IMG/VR virus record: IMGVR_UViG_2541047721_000003
Reading direction: 5' to 3' (one strand)
Source of the DNA: a virus
Lineage: Duplodnaviria; Heunggongvirae; Uroviricota; Caudoviricetes
Length of the DNA: 26,524 nt
The notes below the pieces were generated by a model, which did no database searches, was not told the DNA's origin, and was given only the letters and a program-made list of their open reading frames with translations. Shown piece after piece: positions 2,380 to 25,016 of the stretch (its first letter is position 1; each line of letters begins with the position of its first letter). Made by a program: the position numbers and the translations under genes.

Positions 2380-2957
2380 TGCGGGCCTCCTGTCGAATCG
2401 CTGCCACCTTTAACGCCACCGTGTTTATGCGTATGCACTGTGATACCGTTTGAGGTGAAATTGCCGCCGCTGTGCGTGATATTGCCGCTCATCTTTCCCC
2501 CTTTTGTGACGTCAAGCGTCTCCGTTCTCAGAAGGTTTGTGCATTCCACGACGGGCGTGTCCAGTTTCACGCTGACGGATGCCTGTAAAGTGGCCGTTTT
2601 CATGCCGCTGGCGCTCAGTGCGCCTGCGTCCGCGTCGTAGCGGAACACCGCGCCGTCCGGCGCGCTGATCACGATTTCTTTCAGGCTTTTGCCGGGGGCC
2701 GGACTGGCATCACTCCACAGGCTGCCAATTATCATGGCGGTTTCCGGGTTGCCGCCAATGCAGGCAATTACTACCTGTTCGCCTAGTGATGGCGGCAGCC
2801 ACACATTGAAGGCTCCCGCGCGCGTGGTGTTCCAGCGCAGCCAGCCTGTTTCCAGTTCGCCGCTGCGAACGCGCACGCGCCAGGACTTCTCATCAACTTC
2901 AGAGATGATCCCGGTGCGGATGATATTGCTCAGCAGTCGCATGAGTTCTGCGCTCAC
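2376..2957 (-). CDS. V: Baseplate spike / assembly protein gpV
   Basis: 193 aa. Conserved-looking segments (IRTGII near the N-terminus, HTHKH..GG near the C-terminus) as in P2 gpV. GTG start at 2957 overlaps the S stop; an alternative ATG lies at 2942. Confidence 0.82.
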   Translation of the reverse strand: MSAELMRLLSNIIRTGIISEVDEKSWRVRVRSGELETGWLRWNTTRAGAFNVWLPPSLGEQVVIACIGGNPETAMIIGSLWSDASPAPGKSLKEIVISAPDGAVFRYDADAGALSASGMKTATLQASVSVKLDTPVVECTNLLRTETLDVTKGGKMSGNITHSGGNFTSNGITVHTHKHGGVKGGSDSTGGPQ

Positions 2958-3589
2958 CGTACAGCCTCCGCAATCCGGCCCAGCACCGTGTTATAAATCA
3001 GGCGCTCATCTGCCTGGCTGATACCCAACAGCTCACGTACCGGGTAATCGGTGAAAATGCCCGGCGCAACCTGATCGCGCTCACCGAACTGATGAACGCG
3101 TGCAATACGTGCGGCCACGCCGCTGTAACCTACCGTCACACCGGAGGCATCTGCACGGGCTTTCAGGTAGCGGGCGGTGCGCAGTTTTACGAACATGGGG
3201 ACGCGCTTTGTGCTGTCCTGGTTGATGCGCCGGGTGCGTATTTCCAGAAAACGGTCGATGTCATCCCGGTAAAACGTGCGGATATTGTTTTTATCCTCAT
3301 CCCACCCGGTGATGGTTCGCCCGTATTTCCCCGTGTCGTGATGCCAGTTTTTCAGCGTGCGTGCTTCGTTATTCCAGATAAAGCGAATGCGTTCCTGTAT
3401 CCGGGTTACGCGGCGTCTGCGTGGTGTCCACGCGGTCCCGTCCGGCGCTTTCTGTGACCGGATACGCGCCTGCTGGGCGCGGCGTAAATCCTGTGCCAGC
3501 TTTCTGGCGATGTTATTGATGGCCTGCTGATTCAGGCTGTCGCGGATGGCCTCAAAGGTTTCATCCACGCGGGTGAATGCCTTATCCAT
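2954..3589 (-). CDS. S: Tail completion / virion morphogenesis protein gpS-like
   Basis: Follows R and overlaps its 3' end, as R/S do in P2. Contains an HQFG..PG.F..YP segment typical of the gpS family. Start ambiguous: ATG 3589 or GTG 3598. Longer than P2 gpS (about 150 aa). Confidence 0.65.
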   Translation of the reverse strand: MDKAFTRVDETFEAIRDSLNQQAINNIARKLAQDLRRAQQARIRSQKAPDGTAWTPRRRRVTRIQERIRFIWNNEARTLKNWHHDTGKYGRTITGWDEDKNNIRTFYRDDIDRFLEIRTRRINQDSTKRVPMFVKLRTARYLKARADASGVTVGYSGVAARIARVHQFGERDQVAPGIFTDYPVRELLGISQADERLIYNTVLGRIAEAVR

Positions 3590-4049
3590 CGCTTTCACCC
3601 CACGTCACATCCTGGAATACATGCGACCAGTCGCCTTCGGAAGATGGCAGGCGGGGTTTTGGCTCCGGCAGGTGTTCTGCCTGCGGTGTGCCCTGACTGT
3701 TGCGCGTGATGCGAACGCGTTCCCGCAGGGGGAGCGTAAACAGGAGATCGGCGCTGTCATCGTCATTGATAACGGCGGAGAATTTGATGTCCTGATTACG
3801 CTCAGGGTTGAGCAACAACTGTGGCTGATTTTCGGATAACCACGCCAGCAGCGGCAGCGTGAGGTCGTCCAGCTCTCCGGCGTAATCCATGACAAACATC
3901 ACCATCTGATAGCGGTAAACAAACGAGGGCGTTTCCCCGGTCGTTTCAATGTTGCCGCTCTCCACGAAAATGGTGAATTTCTCGGGATTAGCCTGGCACC
4001 ACCGACACCCATGAAGCATGGACTCTCGCAGACTGTTTGTCTTAAACAT
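3582..4049 (-). CDS. R: Tail completion protein gpR
   Basis: 155 aa, the same length as P2 gpR. LLAWLSENQP-type motif region resembles gpR. ATG at 4049. Confidence 0.8.
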   Translation of the reverse strand: MFKTNSLRESMLHGCRWCQANPEKFTIFVESGNIETTGETPSFVYRYQMVMFVMDYAGELDDLTLPLLAWLSENQPQLLLNPERNQDIKFSAVINDDDSADLLFTLPLRERVRITRNSQGTPQAEHLPEPKPRLPSSEGDWSHVFQDVTWGESDG

Positions 4050-4072
4050 CTGTTTTGCTCTCCTGCTCTTCC

Positions 4073-5950
4073 TTATGCTGCGGGATTATTGATTTCCAGC
4101 ACCAGGCTGCCGATATCGACGCCATACGTTGCATTTTTGGTAATATCCGTCAGCGTCAGTGCATTCAGCCCCAGTGTCAGACTGTCTTTTATGACCTGGA
4201 ATGCCGGGCCAACCAGTCCATTCAGTTTCGGAGTAACCGTGGCACTGCCGGCGGTGAACACCAGCTCCAGCGTCTGCCAGTCGTTACTGTAATTCCCGAA
4301 CTCGCCCAACTTTGTGTTTCCGGCTTTCTTGTGATGCATCAGATTCAGTTTGCCGTCTGTGGTCTGGGTGAAGAACGACATCAGGAACGGGTTACCAGTC
4401 CCGGTCATCGCCACGACGTCAGGTAACGCTACATCGGTATACAGATAAATTCCCAGACCGAACTGGTTGTTGGTCAGTGCGCCTGACAGTCGAAACTTAC
4501 AGCTCAGTCTGCCACCCCGTGTCAGCAGGGAGACTGCGTCATCCACCGGGCGCGTCAGGGACCAGGCTTTATTGCTCTGCTTGGCGATCTTAAATACACC
4601 ATCTGACAACTGAATTCCGCCATTCTTAATGCTCCAGCCCTGCGCAGCAGCATCTCCGGCTGTCGGCAACAGGGAGATTGTGCGTACGGATGCATCTTCA
4701 GACGGCCCCGATGGCGTGTCGCCGCCGGGCGAGGGTTTGATTTCCGGTGCCTTACCACTGATGAAGGCTGAGGTGCGCCCGGCTGCGTTCAGAATAGCGG
4801 TTGCCATACGATCCGGAATAATGCTCCTGCGCGCCCATGAACTGAAATGTGTCGGGCGGTTTGATGATACCCAATTACCATTACTACGGGATTGCGCGCC
4901 GTAATAACCTGCATCAGCAATATCCGGGTCTTCTGCCGGTAAGTTGGTGGGCGTGTTGTTGCCGTTACCGTCGGTCATGAACGGCACAAAGAAAACGTTG
5001 TCGCTCTCCCTGTTTTTGTACGCGCCGTAGACGGAGTCATACTGTGTGCCGTATGTGTTTTTCCAGTAATACGTCGTGTCGCCACAAATCCACGGTACAA
5101 CTGCAGCACTGCCGCCATGGCACTGCGCGTTAAATCCGGAAAGGTCAGTACGGAACTGCTTCAGCATGGCCGTGAACAGGTCCGGTTGCTGTGCGTAGGT
5201 GGCAGCGCTCATGTCAAATTCGCCCTGCATCCAGCACACCGCCAGCAACACATTTTTCGGGTTCTTCTGTAATGCCGCTTTGGTGCGTGCGATCAGGTCC
5301 TGATATAACGGTTTACCCACACCCCAGCGTGCCGAATCCTGGCTGGCCCCCGTGTCCGCACTGAATGTCCCCTCCGCGCCCTGGGTGAATGCCGAACCAC
5401 CACGACAGCATGGTACCAGCAGGATCCCCGCGTTATTCGGGATATACGGAAGCAGTTTTTTGGCAATATGTAAGCCCTGGCCGACACAGCCGTACTGCCC
5501 TTTGCTCAGGTCTGCCTTCGGATGATTCAGTGCGCTCATATCCTGAACATCATGCAGGCAGTGGTCTGCCGGAATGATGTCGTTAAATGCGCATGCTTTA
5601 CCACCGGGAGTCACTGTGTTGCGACGGGCCAGTTGCTTAATGCGTGGGTGGGGCGCATCGTAAGAATCCGGCAGCGGCATTCCCTCACCATATGACATGG
5701 CATTGGATTGACCAGCAAGTACCACCACGTAATACCACTCCGGCACGCTGCCGTGCTGGGGGGAATCAGGTGAGATGTCTGTAGTGCCATCGGCCACCAT
5801 TGCCTGCATTAGATACCACGGGGTGCCGGGTTCGTAGGCAACCCGCGTCTCCCCCTGAAGATGCCACCCTTTCGCAAGATGTTCATTCACCTTTTGAGTC
5901 AGTTCAGCCTGTGTCATGGCTGTAATCAGTGCAAAGTTCTTACTGGTCAT
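4073..5950 (-). CDS. Cargo esterase: N-terminal DUF1737-like domain + SASA/SGNH-type carbohydrate O-acetylesterase domain + C-terminal putative carbohydrate-binding domain (NanS-p-like)
   Basis: 625 aa. ATG at 5950 overlaps the stop of the o-spanin gene (ATGA). GQSN motif (VVVLAGQSNAMSYGEG) characteristic of the SASA esterase family. About 60-aa N-terminal module like the DUF1737 of prophage NanS-p proteins. Placed between lysC and R, where P2 has no gene. Confidence 0.7.
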   Translation of the reverse strand: MTSKNFALITAMTQAELTQKVNEHLAKGWHLQGETRVAYEPGTPWYLMQAMVADGTTDISPDSPQHGSVPEWYYVVVLAGQSNAMSYGEGMPLPDSYDAPHPRIKQLARRNTVTPGGKACAFNDIIPADHCLHDVQDMSALNHPKADLSKGQYGCVGQGLHIAKKLLPYIPNNAGILLVPCCRGGSAFTQGAEGTFSADTGASQDSARWGVGKPLYQDLIARTKAALQKNPKNVLLAVCWMQGEFDMSAATYAQQPDLFTAMLKQFRTDLSGFNAQCHGGSAAVVPWICGDTTYYWKNTYGTQYDSVYGAYKNRESDNVFFVPFMTDGNGNNTPTNLPAEDPDIADAGYYGAQSRSNGNWVSSNRPTHFSSWARRSIIPDRMATAILNAAGRTSAFISGKAPEIKPSPGGDTPSGPSEDASVRTISLLPTAGDAAAQGWSIKNGGIQLSDGVFKIAKQSNKAWSLTRPVDDAVSLLTRGGRLSCKFRLSGALTNNQFGLGIYLYTDVALPDVVAMTGTGNPFLMSFFTQTTDGKLNLMHHKKAGNTKLGEFGNYSNDWQTLELVFTAGSATVTPKLNGLVGPAFQVIKDSLTLGLNALTLTDITKNATYGVDIGSLVLEINNPAA

Positions 5951-6228
5951 TGTGTTACTCCCGTCTGGTGTGTCAGTTCGGCTATTCTCTTATCCAGTTC
6001 AGCAATGGCCCGTTTATCCGCGTTACAGGTTTCCAGTGCATCCAGAAGGCGGTCGCCCCATATTCCGAGGTTTCCCCATGTGGGTGGGTCAGGGAAGGGG
6101 GGAGGCGTTACCGGCATGGTCAGCGTCTGCGGTATAAGCCGGACTGACGGCGCTGGCCCTGGCGCGTTCTGCGTGCCTGCGCAACCTGTCAGTAAAACGA
6201 GCGTCAGGCAAAGCGTGGGCGCATTCAT
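5947..6228 (-). CDS. lysC: o-spanin (Rz1/LysC-like outer-membrane lipoprotein)
   Basis: Starts in the +1 frame inside the Rz-like gene and extends past its stop (overlapped architecture, as in P2 lysB/lysC). Product MNAPTLCLTLVLLTGCAG... has a lipobox (LLTGC) and is proline-rich. ATG at 6228; the longer frame from 6258 is GTG-initiated. Confidence 0.65.
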   Translation of the reverse strand: MNAPTLCLTLVLLTGCAGTQNAPGPAPSVRLIPQTLTMPVTPPPFPDPPTWGNLGIWGDRLLDALETCNADKRAIAELDKRIAELTHQTGVTQ

Positions 6229-6484
6229 CTTTTGCAATATCGTTGCGTAGCTGTTCACGTCTTACCTCTCCGTCCTGATTGCGTTGCTGATTTTCCGCGC
6301 GGAGCTGAGCCAGCACCTGCTGCATATCCTGTACCCCGGCGCTGATGATATTCAGTGTGTCGACGGTACTTTTCAGGGTGCTGGCCTGCGCTTCGTTTCT
6401 GGCGTTCTCCCGGCCCAGCGACCACGACAGACGCATGGATGTAATCAGAAGGAAAGCGACGCCAAGCGTGGGCCAGAGCTTCAT
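6089..6484 (-). CDS. lysB: i-spanin (Rz/LysB-like)
   Basis: ATG at 6484 overlaps the endolysin stop (ATGA). N-terminal TM segment (MKLWPTLGVAFLLITSM) followed by a charged, Q/R/E-rich helical region. Contains the embedded o-spanin gene. Confidence 0.65.
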   Translation of the reverse strand: MKLWPTLGVAFLLITSMRLSWSLGRENARNEAQASTLKSTVDTLNIISAGVQDMQQVLAQLRAENQQRNQDGEVRREQLRNDIAKDECAHALPDARFTDRLRRHAERARASAVSPAYTADADHAGNASPLP

Positions 6485-6873
6485 GCCGGATAGGCTCCGT
6501 GTGGTAACTGAAAATGCGGTCCGTCTTTCAGGGTCTTCCAGTCGCCGCCCCATTCCACCGGAATATTCAGTTCCTGGCTGGCCTGTCTGAATGCTGCTGC
6601 GATTTTTTCGTACAGCGGCCATTCCCATGACACCTGGTTGCCGACATAAGCCACAACATCCACGGCATGCCCTGTGAGATGGCGACTGTTCATGGTCTGG
6701 CTCTTGCCTGTGGTCACGAGCTGCTTCTGACGATAACGACTGCGCAATCCTTCGGTGATACCAAAATCCACTTCCGAGATTTCCAGCGCCCGTCGGGTCA
6801 CTTTCACCAGATCAGGATTTACACCCTGCAAATTCTTTTCGCTCCGGCTGCTGAATTTAAATGTGTTGCTCAT
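6481..6873 (-). CDS. Endolysin, peptidase M15 family (L-alanyl-D-glutamate endopeptidase type)
   Basis: 130 aa. Zinc-ligand style motifs SRHLTGHAVDV and DGPHFQL typical of M15 endolysins. AAGGAGAGG RBS; ATG overlaps the holin stop. Not the P2 K lysozyme type. Confidence 0.8.
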   Translation of the reverse strand: MSNTFKFSSRSEKNLQGVNPDLVKVTRRALEISEVDFGITEGLRSRYRQKQLVTTGKSQTMNSRHLTGHAVDVVAYVGNQVSWEWPLYEKIAAAFRQASQELNIPVEWGGDWKTLKDGPHFQLPHGAYPA

Positions 6874-7193
6874 TCGTTCCTCTCCTTCACCCTGCGATCA
6901 AATATTGCAATAACCTTGTCGCGTGCTTTCTCTGCGCCCATAAAACCGATTGAGGCACCAAAAAACGTCACTGCATCCTCAGGGATCCCGAAGAAGCGCA
7001 GCGACCCGGCCACGGCCATGGCAAGAACGCCGCACGCCAGCGATCCCGTTACGGTCTGAACCAGTGTTCGTCCGTCATAAAGACTCATCAGCGCGGAAAT
7101 GCTGACCGCCGCGCCTACTGCATACACCGTTGGCAGGTGGTCAAAGAGCCACGCAATAACCTGCTCTGTGATCCCTGTTTGAATGGTGCTCAC
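6870..7193 (-). CDS. Holin (putative, about 107 aa, 2-3 TM segments)
   Basis: Directly upstream of the endolysin with stop/start overlap. GTG start at 7193 preceded by GGGGGGAG RBS, just after the X stop. Hydrophobic segments VIAWLFDHLPTVYAVGAAVSISALM and GSLACGVLAMAVAGSL. The 180-aa ORF-track frame extends upstream into X and is not credible. Confidence 0.6.
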   Translation of the reverse strand: MSTIQTGITEQVIAWLFDHLPTVYAVGAAVSISALMSLYDGRTLVQTVTGSLACGVLAMAVAGSLRFFGIPEDAVTFFGASIGFMGAEKARDKVIAIFDRRVKERNE

Positions 7194-8837: not shown

Positions 8838-9890
8838 TTAGCTGTCGGCGAACTTCAGGCCAGTGATCATCGCGCACTTGCCATAGTCTTCAACGACATA
8901 AGCGTCATTGATGGACTGGTAGGTGGCGATGCGGTTGTATTCCGGCTCGTCTTTCATCAGGCGACGCATTGAACCTTTCTGCCAGTAAATCGACAGGTTG
9001 TTGAACGAGGTGATCAGCATCGTTGAATCCGGGAAGAACGGCGCAAGGAATACATCCAGTCCGCCAATGGCGCGCGATGACAGGATGAGCTGTCCGGCAA
9101 GTAATTCCGCATTGGGATTCTGGCCGCTGATGCTGTTCAGCACGGGCAGACGCAGCGAGTTAAACAGGTTGCGCCCCATAATCACCACGAGGTCGTCAGC
9201 TTCCTTGTGCCATTCATCCAGCAGGGATGAGCGCGCATCCTGTACCAGAGCATCGGCATTCGCATACTTACCCGCGTGCGCCACAGTGTTGTCCATGTTG
9301 CGGGAGGTCAGCGTCACGTCATTCATTACGCGCTCGCTGGCATCGGTTCTGATGTGCTCCAGCCAGCCCACGTTTACGTCCTGAAGCAGCTTGTTGGTGT
9401 GAAAATCAGACTCGTAGGCGTGGGATGTGCCGTTAAAGCCAATCATGATGCGATCAAGCGCTACCTGCCGGGCGATCTGTGTACTGATACGGGACTGAAA
9501 ATCGCTGTGGGCCGCCCAGGTATCAAGCTGTGGGTACGAAATAAAGGTATCGTAGTTCACCTGTTCGCACTGGTACTGACGAGACTTCATATCGATCACG
9601 TTATTCGGGTTACGGCGTTTGATGCCGTCATAACTGCTATTCGTGCGCGCAATTGGCCCGGTGGTGTCCAGGAGGATTTTTTCGCCTTTCTGGTCGGTCA
9701 CGCCGATCACGTTAATTCTTTTCGTAAATTCGGTACTTTCCTTTGAGGCGTTTTCAAAACGTTGCTGCACCGCGGGTTCCACGGTAAATCGCGATACCAG
9801 TGCGGAAACCGGGATATTGTTAAGCGACGCCTGCTGCGCCATATAGCAACCCAGCTTGTTGCGGGTAATATCTGACATCACCAGATTCAT
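8838..9890 (-). CDS. N: Major capsid protein gpN
   Basis: 350 aa, ATG at 9890 with AAGGAG RBS. Multiple segments resemble P2 gpN (FNGT, VGWL, DLVVI.GR, NLSIY, YVVEDY). Confidence 0.88.
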   Translation of the reverse strand: MNLVMSDITRNKLGCYMAQQASLNNIPVSALVSRFTVEPAVQQRFENASKESTEFTKRINVIGVTDQKGEKILLDTTGPIARTNSSYDGIKRRNPNNVIDMKSRQYQCEQVNYDTFISYPQLDTWAAHSDFQSRISTQIARQVALDRIMIGFNGTSHAYESDFHTNKLLQDVNVGWLEHIRTDASERVMNDVTLTSRNMDNTVAHAGKYANADALVQDARSSLLDEWHKEADDLVVIMGRNLFNSLRLPVLNSISGQNPNAELLAGQLILSSRAIGGLDVFLAPFFPDSTMLITSFNNLSIYWQKGSMRRLMKDEPEYNRIATYQSINDAYVVEDYGKCAMITGLKFADS

Positions 9891-15538: not shown

Positions 15539-15850
15539 TTATTCGGGAAATAACGCCCTGATATTTCCGGCCATCCGACTGGTTATCTGTGAGGTTGGTA
15601 CTGGCTGTGACGCGGGGCGTTCTGTCCTGGTTTGTGTCACTGATAACGCCTCATCGTCAGCCCATGCAGCCAGTCGGTAAGCCTCTGCCGGATTCATTTT
15701 CAGAAGTGCCAGCCCGGCCAGAAAAGCCACACGTTGGCCGCTTTTGCGGGCTTCTGGTGTAAGGCTGTCCAGCCAGGTGCATGCTTCGCCTTCGTTCTTG
15801 ACGGCGGCGGGCTTCAGATAGAAACTTATCCGTCTGGTTGGTGTCGTCAT
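15539..15850 (-). CDS. parR: ParR-like centromere-binding adaptor (RHH)
   Basis: 103 aa from ATG 15850 (AAGGAG RBS), 4 nt after the parM stop. RRISFYLKP...AFLAGLAL...ALFPE parallels plasmid R1 ParR (RTIAFKLNP...ALTAGLAL...SLFPKE, from memory). Confidence 0.68.
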   Translation of the reverse strand: MTTPTRRISFYLKPAAVKNEGEACTWLDSLTPEARKSGQRVAFLAGLALLKMNPAEAYRLAAWADDEALSVTQTRTERPASQPVPTSQITSRMAGNIRALFPE

Positions 15851-15854
15851 TGGT

Positions 15855-16814
15855 TTACTCCTTGTCCATTGCGTACAGCCCATTAACCAGAGCAAACTGT
15901 GGCACCCCGTCCGCGATGAAAGTCGCATTAACTCCGCAGGCTTCGCGGATAGCGGGTGCCACAATCTCCGCCCCGCCACCGACAACCATCACCCGCCCGT
16001 AACCCGAAAAACCCGCCAGCGCGCGGATCACTCGTTGTTTCAGTGTTTCTTCCTTTTCACGAATAACCGCCATCAGGCTGTCGTAATGCGCGTCATTGTG
16101 GATGTGCTGGCGCAGCCAGGCTTCATCATGGCGATGTTCGATAATGGTATTGGCGATGTGGTGACTGGTGCGCATACCGTTAGTGGCCATCACCGACAGT
16201 ACGGCATCGGCCATCAGAGAAACGCCTACGTGTGGATCGCAAAACACCTGGCTGATACCTGCCAGTTGCCCCTGAACCTTTGCCACATCCAGCGTGGTTC
16301 CGCCCAAATCCACAATCAGCAGGGATTCAAACGGACTCATGTCAGCCAGTGCCTTAAAGCCAGCCGGAATGGATTCAGGCATAACCCGCACGTTACGGAT
16401 AGTGAATGCTTCGCCGTTCTGGTACTCCACCGGGCGCATAACGTTCGCTTTTTTGCGGTTGATGTTGGCCATGTCCGGCTGTGCGTTTGTGTCGAAATAC
16501 TCGCTCAGTGGCAGGGTGACAACCACATCCACCTCCTGTGGCGTGATGCCTGATTTGACCAGCGCGTGATGAATGGCAATTACATTCACATCGCTGTACT
16601 GGTATTGCGTGTCGGTCGTCTGGACAAATCGAACGCTGACCGGATCAAAACCATAGCGCACGCCATCAAGCATGTAGTTTGCGGGCTGCATGCCACCGAA
16701 CGGCGCAGACCATTCCGATTTGAAGCTGTTCGGGCTGATGGCGTTGCGGCGTTCGCCGTTCTCAGTCCATGCCAGCTTGATGTTGGTGGAGCCGTCGTCG
16801 ATACAAATTTTCAT
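15855..16814 (-). CDS. parM: ParM/StbA-like actin-type segregation ATPase
   Basis: 319 aa. MKICIDDGSTNIKLAW N-terminus and segments ISPNSFK, YSDVNV..HHAL, VMPE.IPAG, LLI.DLGGTTLD, GVSL, V.GGGAE, LVNG closely parallel R1 ParM (about 320 aa, from memory). AAGGA RBS. Confidence 0.85.
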   Translation of the reverse strand: MKICIDDGSTNIKLAWTENGERRNAISPNSFKSEWSAPFGGMQPANYMLDGVRYGFDPVSVRFVQTTDTQYQYSDVNVIAIHHALVKSGITPQEVDVVVTLPLSEYFDTNAQPDMANINRKKANVMRPVEYQNGEAFTIRNVRVMPESIPAGFKALADMSPFESLLIVDLGGTTLDVAKVQGQLAGISQVFCDPHVGVSLMADAVLSVMATNGMRTSHHIANTIIEHRHDEAWLRQHIHNDAHYDSLMAVIREKEETLKQRVIRALAGFSGYGRVMVVGGGAEIVAPAIREACGVNATFIADGVPQFALVNGLYAMDKE

Positions 16815-16845
16815 GTCGATTTTCCTTATGTTGATTAATTAATCG

Positions 16846-16956
16846 TTTACGGGGTTTTTAAATCCCGTTTTTGCCTGTTTTATGCGCGCTTCATATATCG
16901 CGGCGCGTTTTTTGCTCATTTACGGGTTTTGTGAATCCCGTTTCTGTCTGTTTTTT
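16846..16956. repeat. parC-like region: two about 38-bp direct repeats flanking a putative promoter
   Basis: TTTACGGGGTTTTTAAATCCCGTTTTTGCCTGTTTTAT (16846..16883) and TTTACGGGTTTTGTGAATCCCGTTTCTGTCTGTTTTTT (16919..16956), each with an ACGGG...CCCGT inverted sub-element. Lies immediately upstream of parM and overlaps the last codons of A. Confidence 0.5.
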
Positions 16957-19713
16957 GTTTCCACTGGTCAGGCTACCCCGCAGCAGGTCTGCTTTGCGGC
17001 GGGCGCGTTCAGTGGTTTCACTGATTCTCTGTGCGTGCTCTGCGTCACGGATGGCGCGCAGCATGTCAGAAAGCACGGTAACGGGGGTTTTCATGGTGTT
17101 CTGGTCCTGCTGAAGTGTGGATGCCAGGCGTGCGGCGGCTTCGGGGTCTGATGCCCCCAGCTGTTCCAGATAGCCGGCGACCGGGTTATGGCGGATCTCC
17201 GTGCTGCTTACGCCGTGATTACGGCTCAGGCGCTGCCAGAGCTGCGTGATTCGGCTGTCCGGGCGGGTATCCGGTTTGCGTACAATTTCAAATCCCTGCG
17301 GTGCAATGATGCTGCCGTCAACGTACAGGCTGCCGCCCCGTAACAGGTGCTGCATCTGCTGTTCACCGATATGCAGGCCGAGAGATTCGGCAGACTCCCG
17401 CCATTCTTTAGCGAGTAATTCGTGGTTATCAGGCAAAGGCCGCTGCTGTTTGCGGCTCTGTGTCCAGCTCTGCATTTCATCACTGCTGTTTTTTGCCTGT
17501 TTATCATGAAGCGAACGCATCAGCGCCCGGCGTTCGTGCCGTTTCAGTGAGCGCATCCATTCGTTCACTTCAACGCCATCAGGGAGCTGCGGCCACGGTG
17601 CTGGCCGTTCTTCCGGCTGTTCTGCCCCGTTGTTGTTCGTTTCCTGTACACGGGGACAGTTATTGCCACGAGTCCAAGGGGCGGCAGGGCCGCCCTGAAG
17701 GTCAAAACCATTTTCGCGGGCGCTGTCTTCCGTTTCCGGTTTACGTCTTACCAGTTTCCAGTTATCCGGATGCGTGCACACACGGGAGGATTCCCCGATG
17801 AGTGGTGACCAGATCCCGTAAATCTGTACGCTCTGTTCGCCGTAATCATTCAGCTCATCTGCGAGGTCGTAGGCGGTGCGAATCAGGTAGTCTTTGCGTG
17901 GAACAAGTACGCCGCCCTGTTTTTCAATGTAGGTGGCAAAACACCCGGCATCGGCGGCAGCGAGTACCGCATCCATTGCGTCATCTTTCAGTCGTTGCGG
18001 GCCTTCCGGGTTGCGTGCCATCTGGCTGGCAAGGCGGCGCAGTTCACGCCACACCTGACGGGAGGGGATGCCAAAGAACTGGAACTGGCGGACCCGATGA
18101 AGGCGCGCCCAGCCGATGGCGCGCTCCACACTCTCGGCCATTGATTTTCCGGTTTCGTGGTCAACGCGTGGCTTGCCCGTTTTCGGGTCGATGCCATCCA
18201 CGGCGCGGCTGTCCAGGTTCTTTCCGATGTAGGTCGCGATATAGCTGGTTGGTGTGCCTTTTGAGCCGTCGACGTACTCCGCTTTAAAACGCGGAGTTAT
18301 GTCATCGCCCAGCTCGTGGCGGTCTTCCTGAATGGCAATATCGCAGACGTGGGACACGATGGTTTCAATCTCGTCCGGATGTGCAAAGACCATCATATGC
18401 CAGTGCACAGTGCCGTCATGGTGAGGCTCCACCGTGCGGATGCCATACCAGCGAAGACCGTCGCGGTTCAGTTTTTTGCGGACCGCCGCAAAAAAAGTGT
18501 TAACCAGGTAATCGCTGGAGTCGCGCATGGTGGCCCCGTTCCATTTGGGATTCGGATGACCGTTCTCCGTTGTTGCGTGGTATTTTGACGGGCAGGTAAC
18601 GGTCAGAAACACCGCTCTGTCGCTACGGGCTTCGGCCAGAAGTTCCAGTCCCTTCATGGTGGCCATCATTTCTGCCTTACGGTGAACCGGGTTACTTACT
18701 CCCGCGTAATACACTGTCTCGAGATCAATCGTGAACCCGTCTTCATTTTCCAGCATGAAACTTTTCAGGAAATCGCGTGTTTTCTCGCGCTGTGCGCGAA
18801 ACTCGCTTAACGCGTCCTGGCTCAGATAGGGCGATGTTTTTCTGGAAACCAGACAGGCGGCGCGGAGTTGTTCTTCCCGCCACTCGCAACGTAACAGCCA
18901 CAGTTTGCGTTTCCACCATTCCGCACAGGTCAGGCGAAGGATTGCGCCCGGCAGCAGTTCTGTGTCCGGTTCGTTCCTCCGGTCTTTGTCTGTTGTCAGT
19001 GCGTCATAATGCGGAGGCATGGCGTGCAAGTGTAACGCCATGCGGGCTAGCATCTGATACGCCTTCAGCGTTACATCCATGGTCAGCTCGCCATCAGTCG
19101 CGCCAAAACCATCGCAGAGTTTTTCGAAGGTGCTGCTGAACATCGCCGCCGTCATGGTGGCCAGCGTCTGTATCTGGTGTTTGTTGAGTTGCGGCAGGTA
19201 AAGCAAATCGTCCAGGCGTTCGCGTCCGGCAAGGGACCGATAACCCGGTGTCAGCCAACGGCTGTCGGTGCGGTCCAGACGTACGAATATTTTGCGCAGG
19301 GTTCCGCGCGCGTAGCGTTCAGCCTGCCAGCTCTTTTTGCCTTTCTGGCGATCGGCTTCCTGTTTTTTGCGCAGGAAGGAGAGGTGGCGAATAAGCGGAT
19401 CGCGCAGATAGGACGGCAGCAGGCGCAGCGAGGCCATGGCTTCATCCACCGCGCCGCGTGCCTGTTTTCTGGCGTCTCCTGCCAGTGTGATGGTTTTGTC
19501 CTGTTTTTCCTGTGCGTCCAGGTTTTTATTAATCAGGTTGCCCAGCGGCGTTGCGGAGAACGCCGCATCAGCCATTTCCTGGCGGCGCTCGTTCTCTGCC
19601 CGGTAGGCATCCAGCCAGGAGGAAAGCGCGGATTCAGGTGCGGGGATCCCCGTTCCTTCACGCCCCACTGCGTGGCGCGGTTGTTGCCAGTCCCTGATGT
19701 ACTCTGCCGTCAT
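16891..19713 (-). CDS. A: Replication initiation endonuclease gpA (rolling-circle, HUH superfamily)
   Basis: 940 aa. HUH-type motif VHWHMMVF and paired catalytic tyrosines Y-x3-Y (SYIATYIGK, about residues 491/495 by manual count), as in the P2 A protein. Longer than P2 gpA (about 761 aa). Confidence 0.85.
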   Translation of the reverse strand: MTAEYIRDWQQPRHAVGREGTGIPAPESALSSWLDAYRAENERRQEMADAAFSATPLGNLINKNLDAQEKQDKTITLAGDARKQARGAVDEAMASLRLLPSYLRDPLIRHLSFLRKKQEADRQKGKKSWQAERYARGTLRKIFVRLDRTDSRWLTPGYRSLAGRERLDDLLYLPQLNKHQIQTLATMTAAMFSSTFEKLCDGFGATDGELTMDVTLKAYQMLARMALHLHAMPPHYDALTTDKDRRNEPDTELLPGAILRLTCAEWWKRKLWLLRCEWREEQLRAACLVSRKTSPYLSQDALSEFRAQREKTRDFLKSFMLENEDGFTIDLETVYYAGVSNPVHRKAEMMATMKGLELLAEARSDRAVFLTVTCPSKYHATTENGHPNPKWNGATMRDSSDYLVNTFFAAVRKKLNRDGLRWYGIRTVEPHHDGTVHWHMMVFAHPDEIETIVSHVCDIAIQEDRHELGDDITPRFKAEYVDGSKGTPTSYIATYIGKNLDSRAVDGIDPKTGKPRVDHETGKSMAESVERAIGWARLHRVRQFQFFGIPSRQVWRELRRLASQMARNPEGPQRLKDDAMDAVLAAADAGCFATYIEKQGGVLVPRKDYLIRTAYDLADELNDYGEQSVQIYGIWSPLIGESSRVCTHPDNWKLVRRKPETEDSARENGFDLQGGPAAPWTRGNNCPRVQETNNNGAEQPEERPAPWPQLPDGVEVNEWMRSLKRHERRALMRSLHDKQAKNSSDEMQSWTQSRKQQRPLPDNHELLAKEWRESAESLGLHIGEQQMQHLLRGGSLYVDGSIIAPQGFEIVRKPDTRPDSRITQLWQRLSRNHGVSSTEIRHNPVAGYLEQLGASDPEAAARLASTLQQDQNTMKTPVTVLSDMLRAIRDAEHAQRISETTERARRKADLLRGSLTSGNKKQTETGFTKPVNEQKTRRDI

Positions 19714-20756: not shown

Positions 20757-21587
20757 TTACTTCACCGGAACAAACGGAACAGCGGTGTTGCTGGTCATGT
20801 ATTGCGGCAGCGTGCCGTTCCATTTGTTGATTGCTTCCAGCTCCATAACGCCGGGATTCTGGCGCAGAGCTTCACCGCGTAAACGAATGGCGTCGGCTTC
20901 AGCCTGGGCTTTTGTGCGAATGGCATCGGCTTGTCCGGCAGCTTCTGCGCGCAGCATGTTGGCTTCAGCTTCGCGTTGCTTGACTTCCTGTTCACGTTGC
21001 AGGGTTTTCTGGTTTGCCGTGACTTTGGCATTAATGCTGTCGATAACGGTTGGTGGGTATTCCGGCTTACCCACATAAGAGAGGCTCATTACCTGAATGC
21101 CGATAGGTGTCATTTCTGCCTGAATGTCTTTAAGTGCTGAATCCAGCAGTTCAGACTTGCCACCGTCGATAAATTTATCGGTGGTCATTTTGCTGGCCAG
21201 TCGGTTGAGTGCGTCGGCGATCTTCTGGCGCAGGTCAGTGTCGGTAATGTCGTCCACGCCTTTGCGGTAGGTCTGAAACACCGTGGTAACTTTGGATGGA
21301 TCAACTTTGTAGGCCACGCCGATGTGATAGCCGATGGTTGTGCCGTCACTCATCTGGAAGTTGAACGGCTCATCGTAAGTCTTCATTTGTTTGAAAGTCG
21401 GGAAGATGTAAACCTCTGTATTCCAGCCTGTCCAGTAGCGGCCAACGCCAACTACTTCGCCGACGCCTTTGTCGTCGCCCAGTTTGTTGACTTTGATTCC
21501 CACATTACCTGGCTCAACGCGATCGCAACCAACCAGCAGGATGGCGGCAAAAAGCGGGAGAATCTGAAAGAGTTTGAATTTCTTCAT
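20757..21587 (-). CDS. SPFH/band-7 (stomatin/prohibitin/HflKC-like) lipoprotein
   Basis: 276 aa. N-terminal signal with lipobox (ILLVGC). Central region consistent with an SPFH domain. C-terminal Ala/Glu/Gln/Arg-rich coiled coil (QREQEVKQREAEANMLRAEAAGQADAIRTKAQAEADAIRLRGEA) typical of HflK/HflC/YqiK-type proteins. ATG overlaps the stop of the upstream small gene. Confidence 0.78.
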   Translation of the reverse strand: MKKFKLFQILPLFAAILLVGCDRVEPGNVGIKVNKLGDDKGVGEVVGVGRYWTGWNTEVYIFPTFKQMKTYDEPFNFQMSDGTTIGYHIGVAYKVDPSKVTTVFQTYRKGVDDITDTDLRQKIADALNRLASKMTTDKFIDGGKSELLDSALKDIQAEMTPIGIQVMSLSYVGKPEYPPTVIDSINAKVTANQKTLQREQEVKQREAEANMLRAEAAGQADAIRTKAQAEADAIRLRGEALRQNPGVMELEAINKWNGTLPQYMTSNTAVPFVPVK

Positions 21588-21787
21588 TGCTTGATTTCCT
21601 TGATGTACTTACTGAAAAGGCGAACAACGCCTGCCGGGTACAGCATGGCAATGAAAATGCCCAGCAATACCAGGAAGGAGCTGTCTGATGAAATCATTCG
21701 GGGGAGTAGTCCTGCATACAGAATGAAAGAGACGAGGACGCATACCAGCGCCCACATGTATGCGCGAAACCAGGTCTTTTTGTTCAT
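21584..21787 (-). CDS. Small membrane protein, 67 aa, two predicted TM helices (possible NfeD-like partner of the SPFH protein)
   Basis: Hydrophobic segments WALVCVLVSFILYAGLL and FLVLLGIFIAMLYPAGVV. ATGA overlap on both sides. Confidence 0.55.
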   Translation of the reverse strand: MNKKTWFRAYMWALVCVLVSFILYAGLLPRMISSDSSFLVLLGIFIAMLYPAGVVRLFSKYIKEIKQ

Positions 21788-22002
21788 GTTGATTGCTCTC
21801 TTTTGTTATTCAGGAAAAAGTCAAAAACGTTATCGATGCGCATCATGAGTTCGCGCTGCATCGCTTCTGGTGTTTCCGGTTCACCAGGCGACCCCAGCGT
21901 TGCGCAGAAATCAGCGATCTCGTGTTGAATGAGTTCTTTCAGCGTCGGTAAGGAATTCATGTGTGTGCGGCGATGCCTGCGTGTGATTCGCCTTCTGCTC
22001 AT
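21784..22002 (-). CDS. Hypothetical protein, 72 aa
   Basis: ATG start with ATGA overlaps on both sides (operon member). Basic N-terminus (MSRRRITRRHRR). Confidence 0.45.
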   Translation of the reverse strand: MSRRRITRRHRRTHMNSLPTLKELIQHEIADFCATLGSPGEPETPEAMQRELMMRIDNVFDFFLNNKREQST

Positions 22003-22202
22003 TTACGCTGCTCCTGTACCTGTCGGATAAGGTTTACCCGCGCCACATTAGTGGCGCAGAAGTAAGTGCCGTCAGTGAGGTAGATGTGGTGTGCATCCTT
22101 TTCCGAACGATGTTTGTCGATAGTGGTAATCAGGCGTTCGTCGACCTCGTATTCGCGCCCTCTGGAGGTAAAGCGAACGACGGGAAAATGCTTAATTGCC
22201 AT
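21999..22202 (-). CDS. Hypothetical protein, 67 aa
   Basis: ATG at 22202 with AAGGGGG RBS. First gene of the overlapping four-gene series ending with the SPFH gene. Confidence 0.45.
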   Translation of the reverse strand: MAIKHFPVVRFTSRGREYEVDERLITTIDKHRSEKDAHHIYLTDGTYFCATNVARVNLIRQVQEQRK

Positions 22203-22225
22203 TGCGCCCCCTTTGCCCAGTAACC

Positions 22226-22636
22226 CTATGCGTTAAATACGGTGCACTGTGCGTCATCAATGAATGCGACTTGAGAGCGCTCTATCAGGCGGAGATTTGT
22301 CAGAATTTCTGATTCCCTTATGGGGTGAGGAGTGATCAGGTATTTATCCTGTAACCCGGCGATAATGGTGTATCGCTGTAGCTCCGAGCCAATTGTGTAA
22401 ATAAGGCGTCCGGTGTTAGACAAATCCAGTCCGGTGACGGGTTGTGTTCTGAGAACCGCCAGTTCAGCATCCTGTTTTGCGATAATTTCGGCTGCTTCTG
22501 CCGTGACTCTTGCGACTATCAGTGTGTGGGTTGCGACGTCCATATGATTATTTGCTATGGCTTTTTTCGCTACTACGTTTTCTGTCTTTGAAATTTCTTT
22601 CAGTGCTCTGATGATACCTTCTTCTTTTGCGTGCAT
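22226..22636 (-). CDS. Hypothetical early protein, 136 aa
   Basis: ATG at 22636 with GGAGAT RBS. No recognisable motif. Confidence 0.5.
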   Translation of the reverse strand: MHAKEEGIIRALKEISKTENVVAKKAIANNHMDVATHTLIVARVTAEAAEIIAKQDAELAVLRTQPVTGLDLSNTGRLIYTIGSELQRYTIIAGLQDKYLITPHPIRESEILTNLRLIERSQVAFIDDAQCTVFNA

Positions 22637-22704
22637 TTTTGTATCTCCGTTATTTGCGTGTGCGAATACCTCCGTTAATACGGATGGTTTTCTCGTTTTC
22701 TTAT

Positions 22705-22842
22705 TTAATTTGATGTTTTATTTGTATCGTTATTCACCAGTGAAAAACGTTCAATCTTTTTTACTGAATGAATAATTCGCATAATTCCAATAGCGCAGGC
22801 CACCGAAATAATCAGAACAAGCCATGAGATAAATATACTCAT
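22705..22842 (-). CDS. Small hydrophobic peptide, 45 aa (single predicted TM helix)
   Basis: Not in the ORF track (too short). ATG at 22842 overlaps the stop of the upstream gene (ATGA). Manual translation MSIFISWLVLIISVACAIGIMRIIHSVKKIERFSLVNNDTNKTSN. AT-rich. Confidence 0.3.
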   Translation of the reverse strand: MSIFISWLVLIISVACAIGIMRIIHSVKKIERFSLVNNDTNKTSN

Positions 22843-23081
22843 GCGATATTCCCCAGCTTATACGGTTCAATATGTTCCCCGCATTCTGCGGCACAGATCA
22901 GCTCGGAAAGTTCGTTAAGTGCATCCAGATCATCAGCGTAAAAAGCCACGTCATACAGACTCCGGATTGCCCTGGTCAATGAGTCACGGGCTGCACGTTC
23001 AGCATGAGCGCCTGATGCACTTAAGCGAAAATAAAAACGCTCAAGTGCTTTGTTAATGAGAGTTTTATATTCTTTGCCCAT
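22839..23081 (-). CDS. Hypothetical early protein, about 80 aa
   Basis: ATG at 23081, 12 nt after the upstream stop; the track's 23132 start is TTG. Confidence 0.45.
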   Translation of the reverse strand: MGKEYKTLINKALERFYFRLSASGAHAERAARDSLTRAIRSLYDVAFYADDLDALNELSELICAAECGEHIEPYKLGNIA

Positions 23082-23092
23082 CGCAACGCCCT

Positions 23093-23371
23093 TTAATCTG
23101 CTTTCTGAATTTCTGCTTCTGAATCCATACAAATAATTTCGATATAGGGTTCATCGCCATTAGTCTTACGTGCTTTTTCCGCTTCGCTAATGATTTCGTG
23201 TACAGTCTGGTACGGAAGTTCTACGGTCAGGCGCGTGCCGTTCAGATAAACGTAAGTAGCTGCATTTTTTTCGGATGGAACGACTCCATCAATAGCTGAT
23301 GCGCGTAATAACAGTTCACCGCGAAAATCAATAAAACGAATAAATACACCTTGTGCATGCTCTTTGGTCAT
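23093..23371 (-). CDS. Hypothetical early protein, about 92 aa
   Basis: ATG at 23371 (MTKEHAQGVFIRF...), 11 nt after the upstream stop; the track's 23431 start is TTG. Confidence 0.45.
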   Translation of the reverse strand: MTKEHAQGVFIRFIDFRGELLLRASAIDGVVPSEKNAATYVYLNGTRLTVELPYQTVHEIISEAEKARKTNGDEPYIEIICMDSEAEIQKAD

Positions 23372-23381
23372 AAAGCACCTG

Positions 23382-23732
23382 TTATAAATCAGCCTGTTTA
23401 ATAAAACTTTGTCCGCGAAGCAGACGATCAACTGTGCGAAGTGCTTCGTACAATGTGAAATCCTGCCCGAACTGATTGTCGCCGTTGCTCAGTGCAAAAA
23501 TGCGGTTTCCGGTAAATGGGTTGCGCTGGCATCTGTGAACCACGATTCCTGCTTTTTCAATCAGCCAAGTGTGTTCACCAATTTGTTTTACTGGGTAGCC
23601 ATCCGGCGTTGCGTGTGTTTCGCTCAGGCTGTAGCGAGAGTTGCTACGTGATGCACTGGTAGCGAAACGGTTAGCATGGCGTTCCGCACCGTTGCGGAAG
23701 CGCTGCTGTGAAGAATTGCGCTGTAGTTTCAT
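23382..23732 (-). CDS. Hypothetical early protein, 116 aa
   Basis: ATG at 23732. First gene after the AT-rich insert, in the position where P2/186-type phages carry small early regulators. Confidence 0.5.
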   Translation of the reverse strand: MKLQRNSSQQRFRNGAERHANRFATSASRSNSRYSLSETHATPDGYPVKQIGEHTWLIEKAGIVVHRCQRNPFTGNRIFALSNGDNQFGQDFTLYEALRTVDRLLRGQSFIKQADL

Positions 23733-23869
23733 ATTAAAACTCTGTACCTTCGGTAAGGTGTACTCGTGTCACCTTGTATTGATTTGTGGTATTTTTTTTG
23801 TGTGTCTAGGACTTGGACTGGCCGGTTCAGGTCCTGGCTTATGTTTAATTAAATTGTTAAGAGGTTTTC

Positions 23870-24061
23870 ATGTCAGAAGATAAAAAAGTTGTTAATTTGT
23901 TGAGTGAACTTAGTGCTGCTCTGGATAACATTAACCCTCCCAGGGTAAAAACGACGGGTGATAAAGACGCATTAAACACAGAGATTCATATATTACTGGC
24001 GTTAGTAACTGACAAAATTCAGCGTAAATACCCACCTGTCACACAACTGGTTGATTTTTAA
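23870..24061 (+). CDS. Hypothetical protein, 63 aa (plus strand, convergent with the 140-aa gene)
   Basis: ATG at 23870 with AAGAGG RBS 5 nt upstream. AT-rich. Own upstream region 23733..23869. Confidence 0.45.
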   Translation: MSEDKKVVNLLSELSAALDNINPPRVKTTGDKDALNTEIHILLALVTDKIQRKYPPVTQLVDF

Positions 24062-24067
24062 TTTGAT

Positions 24068-24490
24068 TTATGCCGGGCTGCTCCCGGCATCTTCTAGCTG
24101 CCATAATGTCTCGTCACCTGATAGAGCAAAACGAAATGAGTGAAGTATATCCCCCCGAGAGAAGCTCACGGCTACAGCTGCGGGAAAGTCAAATATAATC
24201 CCACCTTCATTTTTAAAACGATTACGCAATTGATAGGCTATCGGTTTGATTTGTGCAGGAAGAGTATCTATATCTCTTCCATTGACAACAGAATCTTTGT
24301 TTTCAAGTACTGATTTAGCGATTAGATATAGATGCCAGTAACTGGTTACAATTGTTACTCCTGTGATGTGTCGTAAATTAATTGCAATTCGTCCGTTATT
24401 ATGTTTTTCCGCAAGGTATTTCAGGTTATCAATTAATGCTTGGTCATTTTTTGAAATAGTTATTGTGAAATCTGACGTGTTTGTTTTCAT
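24068..24490 (-). CDS. Hypothetical protein, 140 aa (AT-rich cargo gene)
   Basis: ATG at 24490, 5 nt after the stop of the Cox-position gene. Rough manual count about 36% GC over 24241..24480. The 221-aa version from ATG 24733 overlaps the upstream gene and is low-complexity. Confidence 0.5.
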   Translation of the reverse strand: MKTNTSDFTITISKNDQALIDNLKYLAEKHNNGRIAINLRHITGVTIVTSYWHLYLIAKSVLENKDSVVNGRDIDTLPAQIKPIAYQLRNRFKNEGGIIFDFPAAVAVSFSRGDILHSFRFALSGDETLWQLEDAGSSPA

Positions 24491-24494
24491 ACGA

Positions 24495-25016
24495 TTAGTT
24501 GCCTCTGTTGTTTCTGAGTTGGTCCAGTTTTGAGCTTCTGCCTGTATAAACTCGCTTACCGTTAATGGTCTGGCAGTCTTCTTTATTAGCTGGAGAGAAC
24601 TTCCTTTTCTGGCGGTCATACGTCCAGTAACTTTTCCAGTTGTGCCATTCTGGGGGCTCGTGCTCTGGTAGCTCATCAGCCAACTTGTCCCACTCTTTGG
24701 CGTTAAACCACCATACTCCGTCTGAGTTTTCATCTTCCGGGTTTGTGCGCGTCTTGTGTCCCGGCATTTGACCGCGATGAATGGCTACGCGCAGTGCAGA
24801 TTTTGTTAGCCCAATATATGCCGCGCCTTTTTCCAGAGAGCAAAGCCCGGCGATCGGACCATCCAGCCGCAAAGTCGCTCCTTTTTTGTAGGAACGCTTT
24901 TTCTTGTTTTCTTCGTGCTCGTCGTCGTTGGCGGCATCAATGGATCCGCTGAGTGCGTCACTTTCCTGAAGTGGTTGGTGGTCAGATAACTCTTTATCGG
25001 CAATGAAGTCCCGCAT
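24495..25016 (-). CDS. Early regulator in the Cox/Apl position (putative HTH DNA-binding protein; possible excisionase / switch regulator)
   Basis: 173 aa, ATG at 25016 with AAGAGG RBS. Divergent from the repressor gene across an about 100-bp switch region. HTH-like segment LTKSALRVAIHRGQMPG. Larger than P2 Cox (91 aa), so assignment is by position only. Confidence 0.5.
   Translation of the reverse strand: MRDFIADKELSDHQPLQESDALSGSIDAANDDEHEENKKKRSYKKGATLRLDGPIAGLCSLEKGAAYIGLTKSALRVAIHRGQMPGHKTRTNPEDENSDGVWWFNAKEWDKLADELPEHEPPEWHNWKSYWTYDRQKRKFSPANKEDCQTINGKRVYTGRSSKLDQLRNNRGN

Follow-up and report, generated by a model that had tools for sequence, protein, structure and literature searches.

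The esterases of the NanS-p family have so far been studied almost only as accessories of the lambdoid Shiga-toxin (Stx) phages of enterohaemorrhagic Escherichia coli (EHEC). Every nanS-p allele tested from EDL933 and O104:H4 encodes an active esterase (reviewed in PMC8065619), and catalysis by the chromosomal enzyme NanS relies on Ser19 and His301, while Gln18 belongs to the oxyanion hole and a catalytic Asp is lacking (PMC9063846). A recent preprint (10.64898/2026.04.10.717836) describes the NanS-p of phage phi24B, gp84, as a virion protein, which decorates the capsid and is anchored there by its DUF1737 domain. Hexamers of this domain plug the central hexon of each facet of the T=9 shell by means of a Tyr "tooth", and the remainder of gp84 is proteolytically shed over time. 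The present work describes a nanS-p gene in a different setting, namely in IMG/VR virus record IMGVR_UViG_2541047721_000003, a stretch of 26,524 nucleotides (nt) of tailed-phage DNA referred to below, at its full length, as the window. The gene occupies positions 4073 to 5950 on the minus strand, starts with ATG and codes for a protein of 625 residues and ~67 kDa. It is a genuine, functional-looking member of the NanS-p family, unusual both in its carrier, a P2-like prophage, and in its position in the late operon, and it bears an N-terminal subtype which is specific to this backbone.

An earlier note on the window, made from the letters alone, had proposed that the open reading frame (ORF) combines a DUF1737-like N-terminus, a SASA esterase core and a putative carbohydrate-binding C-terminal region. 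Profile searches support this architecture, since Pfam models match DUF1737 at residues 4-53 (28.6 bits, gathering cutoff 24), SASA at residues 75-271 (49.5 bits) and DUF6645 at residues 476-586 (69.1 bits), all above their gathering cutoffs. In the PHROGs collection, phrog_143 is matched over the full length with 1083 bits; NCBIfam yielded no model for the protein. Among PDB sequences, residues 69-388 match chromosomal NanS (YjhS; 3PT5) with E = 3.6e-122 and 57% identity over 316 residues, while residues 430-622 match the C-terminal domain of a NanS-p protein (6YP6) with E = 1.9e-29, which together with DUF6645 upholds the carbohydrate-binding region. The absence of a SASA match or of the catalytic residues would have spoken against an esterase, and both are present. 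The GQSN motif falls at residues 80-83, Gln81-Ser82 and His368 (in an RPTH block) align with Gln18-Ser19 and His301 of NanS, and the catalytic positions are invariant across a 30-sequence alignment of the family. The RPTH variant of the last SGNH block is known from the allele of phage 86 (PMC10462455). Three of the four sugar-site positions proposed for the C-terminal domain of phi24B are aromatic in the window protein (F497, Y502 and F527), only Y502 being the same residue, and the fourth falls in a gap. In a full-length AlphaFold2 (AF2) model built from the 30-sequence alignment, residues 56-161 were poor (predicted local distance difference test, pLDDT, below 35), and the core was read from the homology to 3PT5 instead. 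Compared to chromosomal NanS, the protein thus has an SGNH type II domain of 57% identity which keeps the Ser-His dyad and the Gln oxyanion residue, yet NanS is a single-domain protein of ~326 residues encoded in the nanCMS operon, whereas the window protein is phage-encoded, carries extra N- and C-terminal domains and would be expressed late. Judging from these matches, it is probably (at about 0.72) a three-domain sialate 9-O-acetylesterase of the NanS-p family, carried as cargo in the P2-type late operon of a P88-like prophage.

The ORF is real and conserved rather than a product of chance, because it is found in 373 complete E. coli genomes with a ratio of nonsynonymous to synonymous substitutions (dN/dS) of 0.05-0.47, depending on the domain. 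Nor is it new to the databases, since RefSeq already annotates the same ORF; in the identical prophage of strain U15A its RefSeq/PGAP label is "DUF6645 domain-containing protein".

The late operon which carries the gene has the order O-N-M-L-X-holin-endolysin-lysB/lysC-esterase-R-S, with gpN encoded at 8838-9890. The ATG of the esterase (5950-5948) overlaps the TGA of the o-spanin gene lysC (5949-5947) in an ATGA (5950-5947), where the minus strand reads ...ACA CAA TGA CC, and a Shine-Dalgarno sequence, GGGAG, lies at 5962-5958, 7 nt before the ATG and within the 3' end of lysC. At the other end, the ATG of gene R is found at 4049-4047. The length of the ORF, its overlap with the o-spanin stop and its end 23 nt before R had all been noted previously and agree with these coordinates. 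Translation of the esterase is probably coupled to the termination of lysC. A crude consensus scan for promoters and terminators revealed nothing terminator-like on either side of the gene and, near it, just two promoter-like matches, both weak (9/12) and fewer than the 3.4 expected by chance; one overlaps the esterase start and the other lies just within its 3' end. The Ogr-type late-promoter box (TGT-N12-ACA) was uninformative, with two matches against 6.7 expected and none upstream of a late gene. The promoter and terminator which flank a classical moron were accordingly not found for this gene, whose start overlaps the lysC stop. The protein begins with a folded domain and not with a signal peptide, so that export of the esterase would need lysis. 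Its transcription is likely to be confined to the late phase that follows induction, along with the other late genes. In view of the missing signal peptide, the lack of a promoter or terminator particular to the gene and the probable coupling to lysC, the proposal of the earlier note that the protein is expressed late and released at lysis is a reasonable one. It may nevertheless be incomplete, given the capsid-decorating homologue of phi24B.

The same note had held that this placement mirrors a position of nanS-p after the lysis cassette in lambdoid phages. In PPyecE_EH1910, phage 1717, PhiR12_2 and one E. coli contig, lambdoid nanS-p in fact sits between Q/stx and the holin gene, upstream of the lysis cassette rather than after it. 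The interpretation therefore holds for a NanS-p-type esterase in a P2 operon but not for the mirrored placement; all that the two placements have in common is a late-operon location beside lysis genes. Such a location in the late region of a prophage, adjacent to the lysis genes, is a NanS-p feature which the window gene shares, lying between lysC and R. The known examples have lambdoid carriers, in which the gene comes after Q/stx and before holin S; the window gene does not share this setting, which describes those examples rather than defining the enzyme family. Likeness to lambdoid NanS-p extends further to the DUF1737-SASA-DUF6645 architecture, the full-length phrog_143 match, the lack of a signal peptide and an overall identity of 82-83% to the Stx1a/PPyecE allele. 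What sets the gene apart from the lambdoid examples is its carrier, a P2-like myovirus, its place after the spanins and before the tail gene R, a DUF1737 of another subtype with a β-hairpin longer by four residues, and the absence from the window of the small DUF1378 gene usually found 3' of nanS-p. In other carriers this small membrane-peptide gene, DUF1378 and sometimes also DUF826, follows the esterase in lambdoid, Mu-like and one P2-like locus (L108 12084-12684, L104 8235-8707 and L106 7046-7213, the last being the P2-like one).

The comparison of domains reveals the gene to be a chimera, because its N-terminal domain is a distinct P2-specific subtype while its core and C-terminal domain are nearly identical to lambdoid alleles. 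Nucleotide homology with the closest lambdoid allele is restricted to positions 5744-4075. Among the closest lambdoid alleles, identity reaches 90-99% in the core (99% to L028) and 86-96% in the C-terminal domain (96% to L049), yet residues 1-55 are only 31-35% identical to lambdoid N-termini. The latter are 86-100% identical to each other, even where the cores which follow them share 65-71% and the C-terminal domains 29-47%. The N-terminal type of the window occurs in only three records of the phage collection, all P88-like, and in 10 of 80 IMG/VR loci, every one of which has LysC directly upstream. Its DNA is present in 376 E. coli genomes (367 at ≥99% identity), about the same number as the 373 with the full arrangement. 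The P2-type subtype as a whole was found only in the slot between lysC and R of P2-like phages, together with several very different esterase cores. The dN/dS values (Nei-Gojobori) are 0.05-0.16 for the N-terminal domain, 0.10-0.20 for the core and 0.26-0.47 for the C-terminal domain; constraint is thus greatest in the N-terminal domain, which is under strong purifying selection. By these sequence identities, core and C-terminal domain are freely exchanged with lambdoid nanS-p alleles, and the exchange breakpoint coincides with the start of nucleotide homology, at the first conserved codons of the core. The modularity which appears from the comparison, a P2-specific N-terminal subtype joined to a lambdoid-like core and C-terminal domain, is what is new here; the earlier note had correctly seen a DUF1737-like N-terminus and missed its distinct subtype, and hence the chimera.

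Relatives of the N-terminal module are few. A word-indexed search with its 68 residues returned only fragments of the same protein, and an exhaustive phmmer search only 11 relatives, weak or short. A DUF1737 profile found nothing significant among PDB sequences. In genome contigs, a scan yielded only Escherichia relatives and distant SASA cores. Two stand-alone DUF1737 proteins which resemble the P2-type N-terminus (P0015 and P0017) had no loci in IMG/VR.

Three IMG/VR loci are reciprocal hybrid joints, with the crossover within the region homologous to positions 4075-5744 of the window. L064 and L068 contain lambdoid upstream genes and a lambdoid N-terminus, followed by P88-like gpR, S, V and onwards, while L021 (1-13878) contains P88-like head and lysis genes and the P2-type N-terminus, followed by lambdoid holin, endolysin and Rz. 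From their structure, nanS-p paralogues evidently serve as substrates of homologous recombination between P2-like and lambdoid prophages, and the joints probably yield chromosomal inversions or defective hybrids.

The P2-type backbone proposed for the window is confirmed by its P88-like flanks and by its LysC and GpR neighbours, as is a base composition like that of the backbone, the guanine-plus-cytosine (GC) content being 0.550 in the esterase ORF and 0.55-0.56 in the flanking late genes. Escherichia phage P88 and related phages (Xuanwuvirus, Peduoviridae; P2-like) share 95-98% identity with the flanks and lack the gene. Diverged alleles mark the breakpoints, covering ~18 codons at the end of lysC and 14 at the beginning of R. 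Because these breakpoints fall inside the neighbouring genes, the sequence looks as if the cassette had been recombined in with its flanks, from another P2-like lineage, and not cleanly inserted. LysC ends in ...AIAELDKRIAELTHQTGVTQ before its stop in the window (5951-6002) and in ...AIELLEQRRLQRLNNEDNNHAEN in P88 (L001, the empty allele); the former resembles the ...AIAWLDKQRAERAQDAPHQE found in a second P2-like group (L012, L017 and L018). Relative to L017, the window has one extra G at the junction; the resulting change of frame lengthens lysC by three codons and carries it into the ATGA overlap. The filled lysC-esterase-R arrangement is common, being found in 373 of 5,426 complete E. coli genomes, and the empty P88-type lysC-R junction in 689, some genomes having both. 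No paper was found on nanS-p or DUF1737 in P2-like phages, extraintestinal pathogenic E. coli (ExPEC) or sequence type 131 (ST131) with this arrangement.

The window itself is 100% identical to a prophage adjoining serS in the urinary E. coli isolates U12A-U15A. In the U15A prophage, outside the window and to the left of its position 1 (L004 6374-14739), the tail genes FI-FII-E-T-U are inverted relative to D and ogr, gpD is shortened to 266 residues, and partial tail-protein pseudogenes and an invertase-type recombinase gene flank the inverted segment.

The second P2-like group of E. coli prophages comprises L012, L017, L018, L106 and L107 (for example in strains SW071611 and NCTC9112); its gpN, gpL and gpR are 62%, 68% and 55% identical to those of the window. 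Its esterases resemble that of the window in the slot between lysC and R, in the homologous 5' junction (...GGAGTAACACAATGA), in the architecture and in the P2-type DUF1737 subtype, the N-terminus being 55-64% identical and sharing the long EPGxPWY hairpin. They differ in that their cores are 67-71% and their C-terminal domains 31-35% identical to the window protein, and to anything else compared these values are 63-74% and 27-55%. Instead of the 23-nt spacer of the window, 145-400 nt follow the esterase in this group, and in L012, L017 and L018 the LysC stop lies 3-6 nt before the ATG, with no overlap. A GC-rich terminator-like hairpin and a small ORF are found after the esterase stop in L017 and L018, where the window lineage has only its spacer.

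Other members of the family depart further at the N-terminus. P0105 (L102 1015-3768; 917 residues) opens with a prophage tail-fibre N-terminal domain (PF08400), continues with a coiled coil, SASA and DUF6645 and ends in an additional C-terminal region, and its gene follows a tail-fibre assembly gene at the prophage end. P0125 (L104 6001-8070; 689 residues) has an unrelated N-terminal domain of ~110 residues and is encoded at the right-hand end of a Mu-like prophage, behind the gene for a Gin-type invertase. A third DUF1737 subtype with a different hairpin (…SYDDNGMKFIQA…) is found in P0087, P0088, P0102, P0107 and P0112 and may correspond to the "D3" variant of PMC10462455. The one locus of this subtype examined, L108 (which carries P0088), is a lambdoid prophage with a lambda-type terminase and portal and a head of the ClpP-protease/capsid fusion type.

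The N-terminal domain is predicted by AF2 as β-α-β-β (strands at residues 4-11, 29-40 and 43-54 and a helix at 14-26; mean pLDDT 81), and this fold, a helix with a three-stranded antiparallel sheet, is that described for the capsid-binding domain of phi24B. In addition to this likeness, the phage P4 protein Psu reportedly binds to hexamers of the P2 capsid protein gpN, a precedent which suggests that the centres of gpN hexamers can accept a decoration protein. A tail-fibre N-terminal domain is an accepted virion anchor. The docking in phi24B, the shared predicted fold and the exchange of DUF1737 for tail-fibre or Mu-like N-terminal domains within the family together point to the N-terminal module as an interchangeable adaptor to the virion, whether DUF1737, a tail-fibre domain or the N-terminal domain of a Mu-like phage. 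By analogy with these systems, docking of the esterase to the capsid of P2-like phages is plausible, although far from assured; that the P2-type DUF1737 is a docking domain adapted to the gpN capsid, so that about a third of the P88-like phages release esterase-decorated particles, is possible but on the whole rather unlikely.

Several points weigh against docking. P2 is generally described as having a T=7 capsid, which would have no hexon of the kind occupied in phi24B. In phi24B, binding of the domain is confined to the flat hexon at the centre of each T=9 facet (10.64898/2026.04.10.717836). The anchoring Tyr of phi24B aligns with Trp45 (followed by Tyr46) at the tip of a hairpin which is four residues longer (YEPG) in all P2-type N-termini. 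Fold searches with the model of the N-terminal domain gave only generic β-α-β-β matches. No sequence similarity to Psu is seen. The U15A copy, moreover, may not make tails or particles, being perhaps particle-deficient because of the inverted FI-U segment and the shortened gpD. No fewer than three types of head (an HK97-like protease-capsid fusion, lambda E/D and the T=9 head of phi24B) are found together with the lambdoid N-terminus, and DUF1737 subtypes therefore do not correspond one-to-one to capsid types. Strict matching of subtype to capsid was considered and rejected, in view of these three head types and of the ClpP-capsid fusion head with the third subtype. The link between N-terminus and backbone could also be explained by history and homology-limited recombination, which could give the same pattern because the exchange breakpoint sits where homology begins.

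From the observed sequence and architecture a mechanism may be proposed, in which timing, release, substrate and docking are inferred. Induction would lead to a late operon transcript which includes the esterase; translation would start from the strong Shine-Dalgarno sequence within lysC, coupled to lysC termination, and the cytoplasmic enzyme would be freed by holin-endolysin-spanin lysis, either soluble or bound to capsids. Once out of the cell, the enzyme would use its SGNH core to de-O-acetylate sialic acids of the Neu5,9Ac2 type on mucins, and the lectin-like C-terminal jelly roll would target it to glycans. More tentatively, the 68-residue N-terminal module may tether the esterase to a P2-type shell made of gpN, much as gp84 of phi24B is fixed to its own capsid through DUF1737, and the particle would then carry a mucin-modifying enzyme.

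The esterase may instead be pure cargo, for lysogenic conversion or as a public good: soluble enzyme from the lysed fraction of the lysogens would help sibling cells in gut or urinary mucus to use O-acetylated sialic acids, DUF1737 would have no role in the virion, and its backbone specificity would be due to common descent and to recombination with lambdoid alleles which starts only at homology. This has a real chance of being correct, if somewhat short of an even one. The classical NanS-p model, built on growth experiments (PMC8065619), is of this kind, and the position of the exchange breakpoint, the lambdoid N-terminus beside three head types and the hybrid joints, which show homologous recombination through the gene, are all in keeping with it. 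The divergence of the N-terminus between the two P2-like groups also matches that of their gpN, gpL and gpR, as in simple co-descent. What such an explanation leaves aside is that the dN/dS of the N-terminal domain is the lowest of the protein, which is not expected of a functionless leader, that the phi24B homologue is virion-bound via DUF1737 (10.64898/2026.04.10.717836), and that P0105 has a tail-fibre anchor in its place. Furthermore, ~93% of E. coli have chromosomal nanCMS (PMC10088187), so that a metabolic gain to the lysogen is not obvious.

An alternative role in infection, in which a virion-borne or released esterase de-O-acetylates bacterial glycans (the O-acetylated polysialic acid of the K1 capsule, or O-antigen) and thereby exposes the receptor of its own or of co-resident phages, has been raised for NanS-p in a review (PMC8065619). 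The carriers are phages of ExPEC-type strains from urine and blood, and the gene lies in a structural and lysis operon and is associated with virion-anchor modules, as such a role would have it. It is nonetheless improbable: no NanS-p is on record as acting on a bacterial polysaccharide, and the core is 99% identical to alleles of lambdoid phages with unrelated tails and receptors. The esterase is also not required for infection, because phage P88, which lacks the gene, forms plaques (PMC5285337), and about two thirds of the E. coli genomes with a P88-type lysC-R junction hold the esterase-free version. As for a decaying or inactive hitch-hiking remnant, to which the tail-gene inversion in the identical U15A prophage might point, the intact ORF in hundreds of genomes, the invariant catalytic residues in 30 homologues, a dN/dS well below 1 in all three domains and the preserved Shine-Dalgarno sequence and start/stop coupling make it very unlikely, and it is disfavoured.

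As a NanS-p-type esterase of a P2-like late operon, the gene places the same enzyme cassette in a prophage which ~7% of the complete E. coli genomes carry, many of these belonging to isolates from human urine or blood. Since this P2-like prophage is widespread, phage-borne de-O-acetylation of mucin sialic acids would not be specific to EHEC. The domain-by-domain comparison lends independent comparative-genomic support to the recent claim that DUF1737 is a virion anchor, and makes of it a direct prediction for another capsid system that is well understood, the gpN shell of P2 and P4. The nanS-p paralogues may also be regarded as recombination bridges which join unrelated prophage families in one chromosome. 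If the N-terminal module is an adaptor, it would plug one esterase cassette onto different virion architectures; if docking is true, the particles would bear an active, lectin-guided esterase, an enzymatic form of phage adherence to mucus, and the protein would be, to our knowledge, the first decoration protein encoded by a P2-like phage itself. The features of the locus are collected in Table 1.

Table 1. Coordinates of the esterase gene, its encoded domains, its junctions and the neighbouring late genes in the window.
Feature	Position	Strand	Remarks
Complete NanS-p family esterase ORF, 625 residues	4073..5950	-	Includes TAA stop at 4075-4073
N-terminal module, residues 1-68: P2-type DUF1737 and Pro/Ser-rich linker	5747..5950	-	Pfam span 5792-5941; without nucleotide homology to lambdoid alleles
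SGNH type II/SASA catalytic core, residues 69-388	4787..5746	-	Ser82 codon 5705-5707; His368 codon 4847-4849
Pro/Ser/Gly-rich interdomain linker, residues 389-429	4664..4786	-	pLDDT <50 at residues 399-421
C-terminal lectin-like jelly-roll domain (DUF6645), residues 430-625	4076..4663	-	Homologous to PDB 6YP6
Coupling junction (GGGAG and ATGA overlap)	5947..5962	-	Homologous to the ...GGAGTAACACAATGA junction of other P2-like lineages
Spacer of 23 nt, esterase stop to R start	4050..4072	-	AGGAG of R at 4064-4060; without terminator hairpin
Segment of 1,995 bp in place of 93 bp of phage P88	4008..6002	-	Breakpoints inside the 5' end of R and the 3' end of lysC
gpS, tail/virion morphogenesis protein	2954..3598	-
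gpR, tail completion protein	3582..4049	-	Immediately 3' of the esterase in the same operon; Pfam GpR PF06891
lysC, o-spanin, lipobox LTGC	5947..6258	-	RefSeq start at 6207; Pfam LysC PF23793
lysB, i-spanin, DUF2570	6089..6484	-	RefSeq coordinates
M15 endolysin	6481..6873	-
Holin	6870..7193	-	RefSeq coordinates

Away from the late operon, positions 22500-24500 of the window have a GC content of 0.38-0.45, compared to ~0.55 elsewhere, and contain several small hypothetical early-region genes; this stretch may be recently acquired cargo. The early region also codes, at 15846-17517 and 21459-22289 (both on the minus strand), for a ParM-type segregation ATPase and includes a "plasmid partitioning/stability" gene, a ClpX-type zinc-finger gene and an SPFH-domain gene, named as RefSeq annotates the identical sequence. 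In a P2-like phage that is integrated, partition genes of the plasmid type would not be expected.

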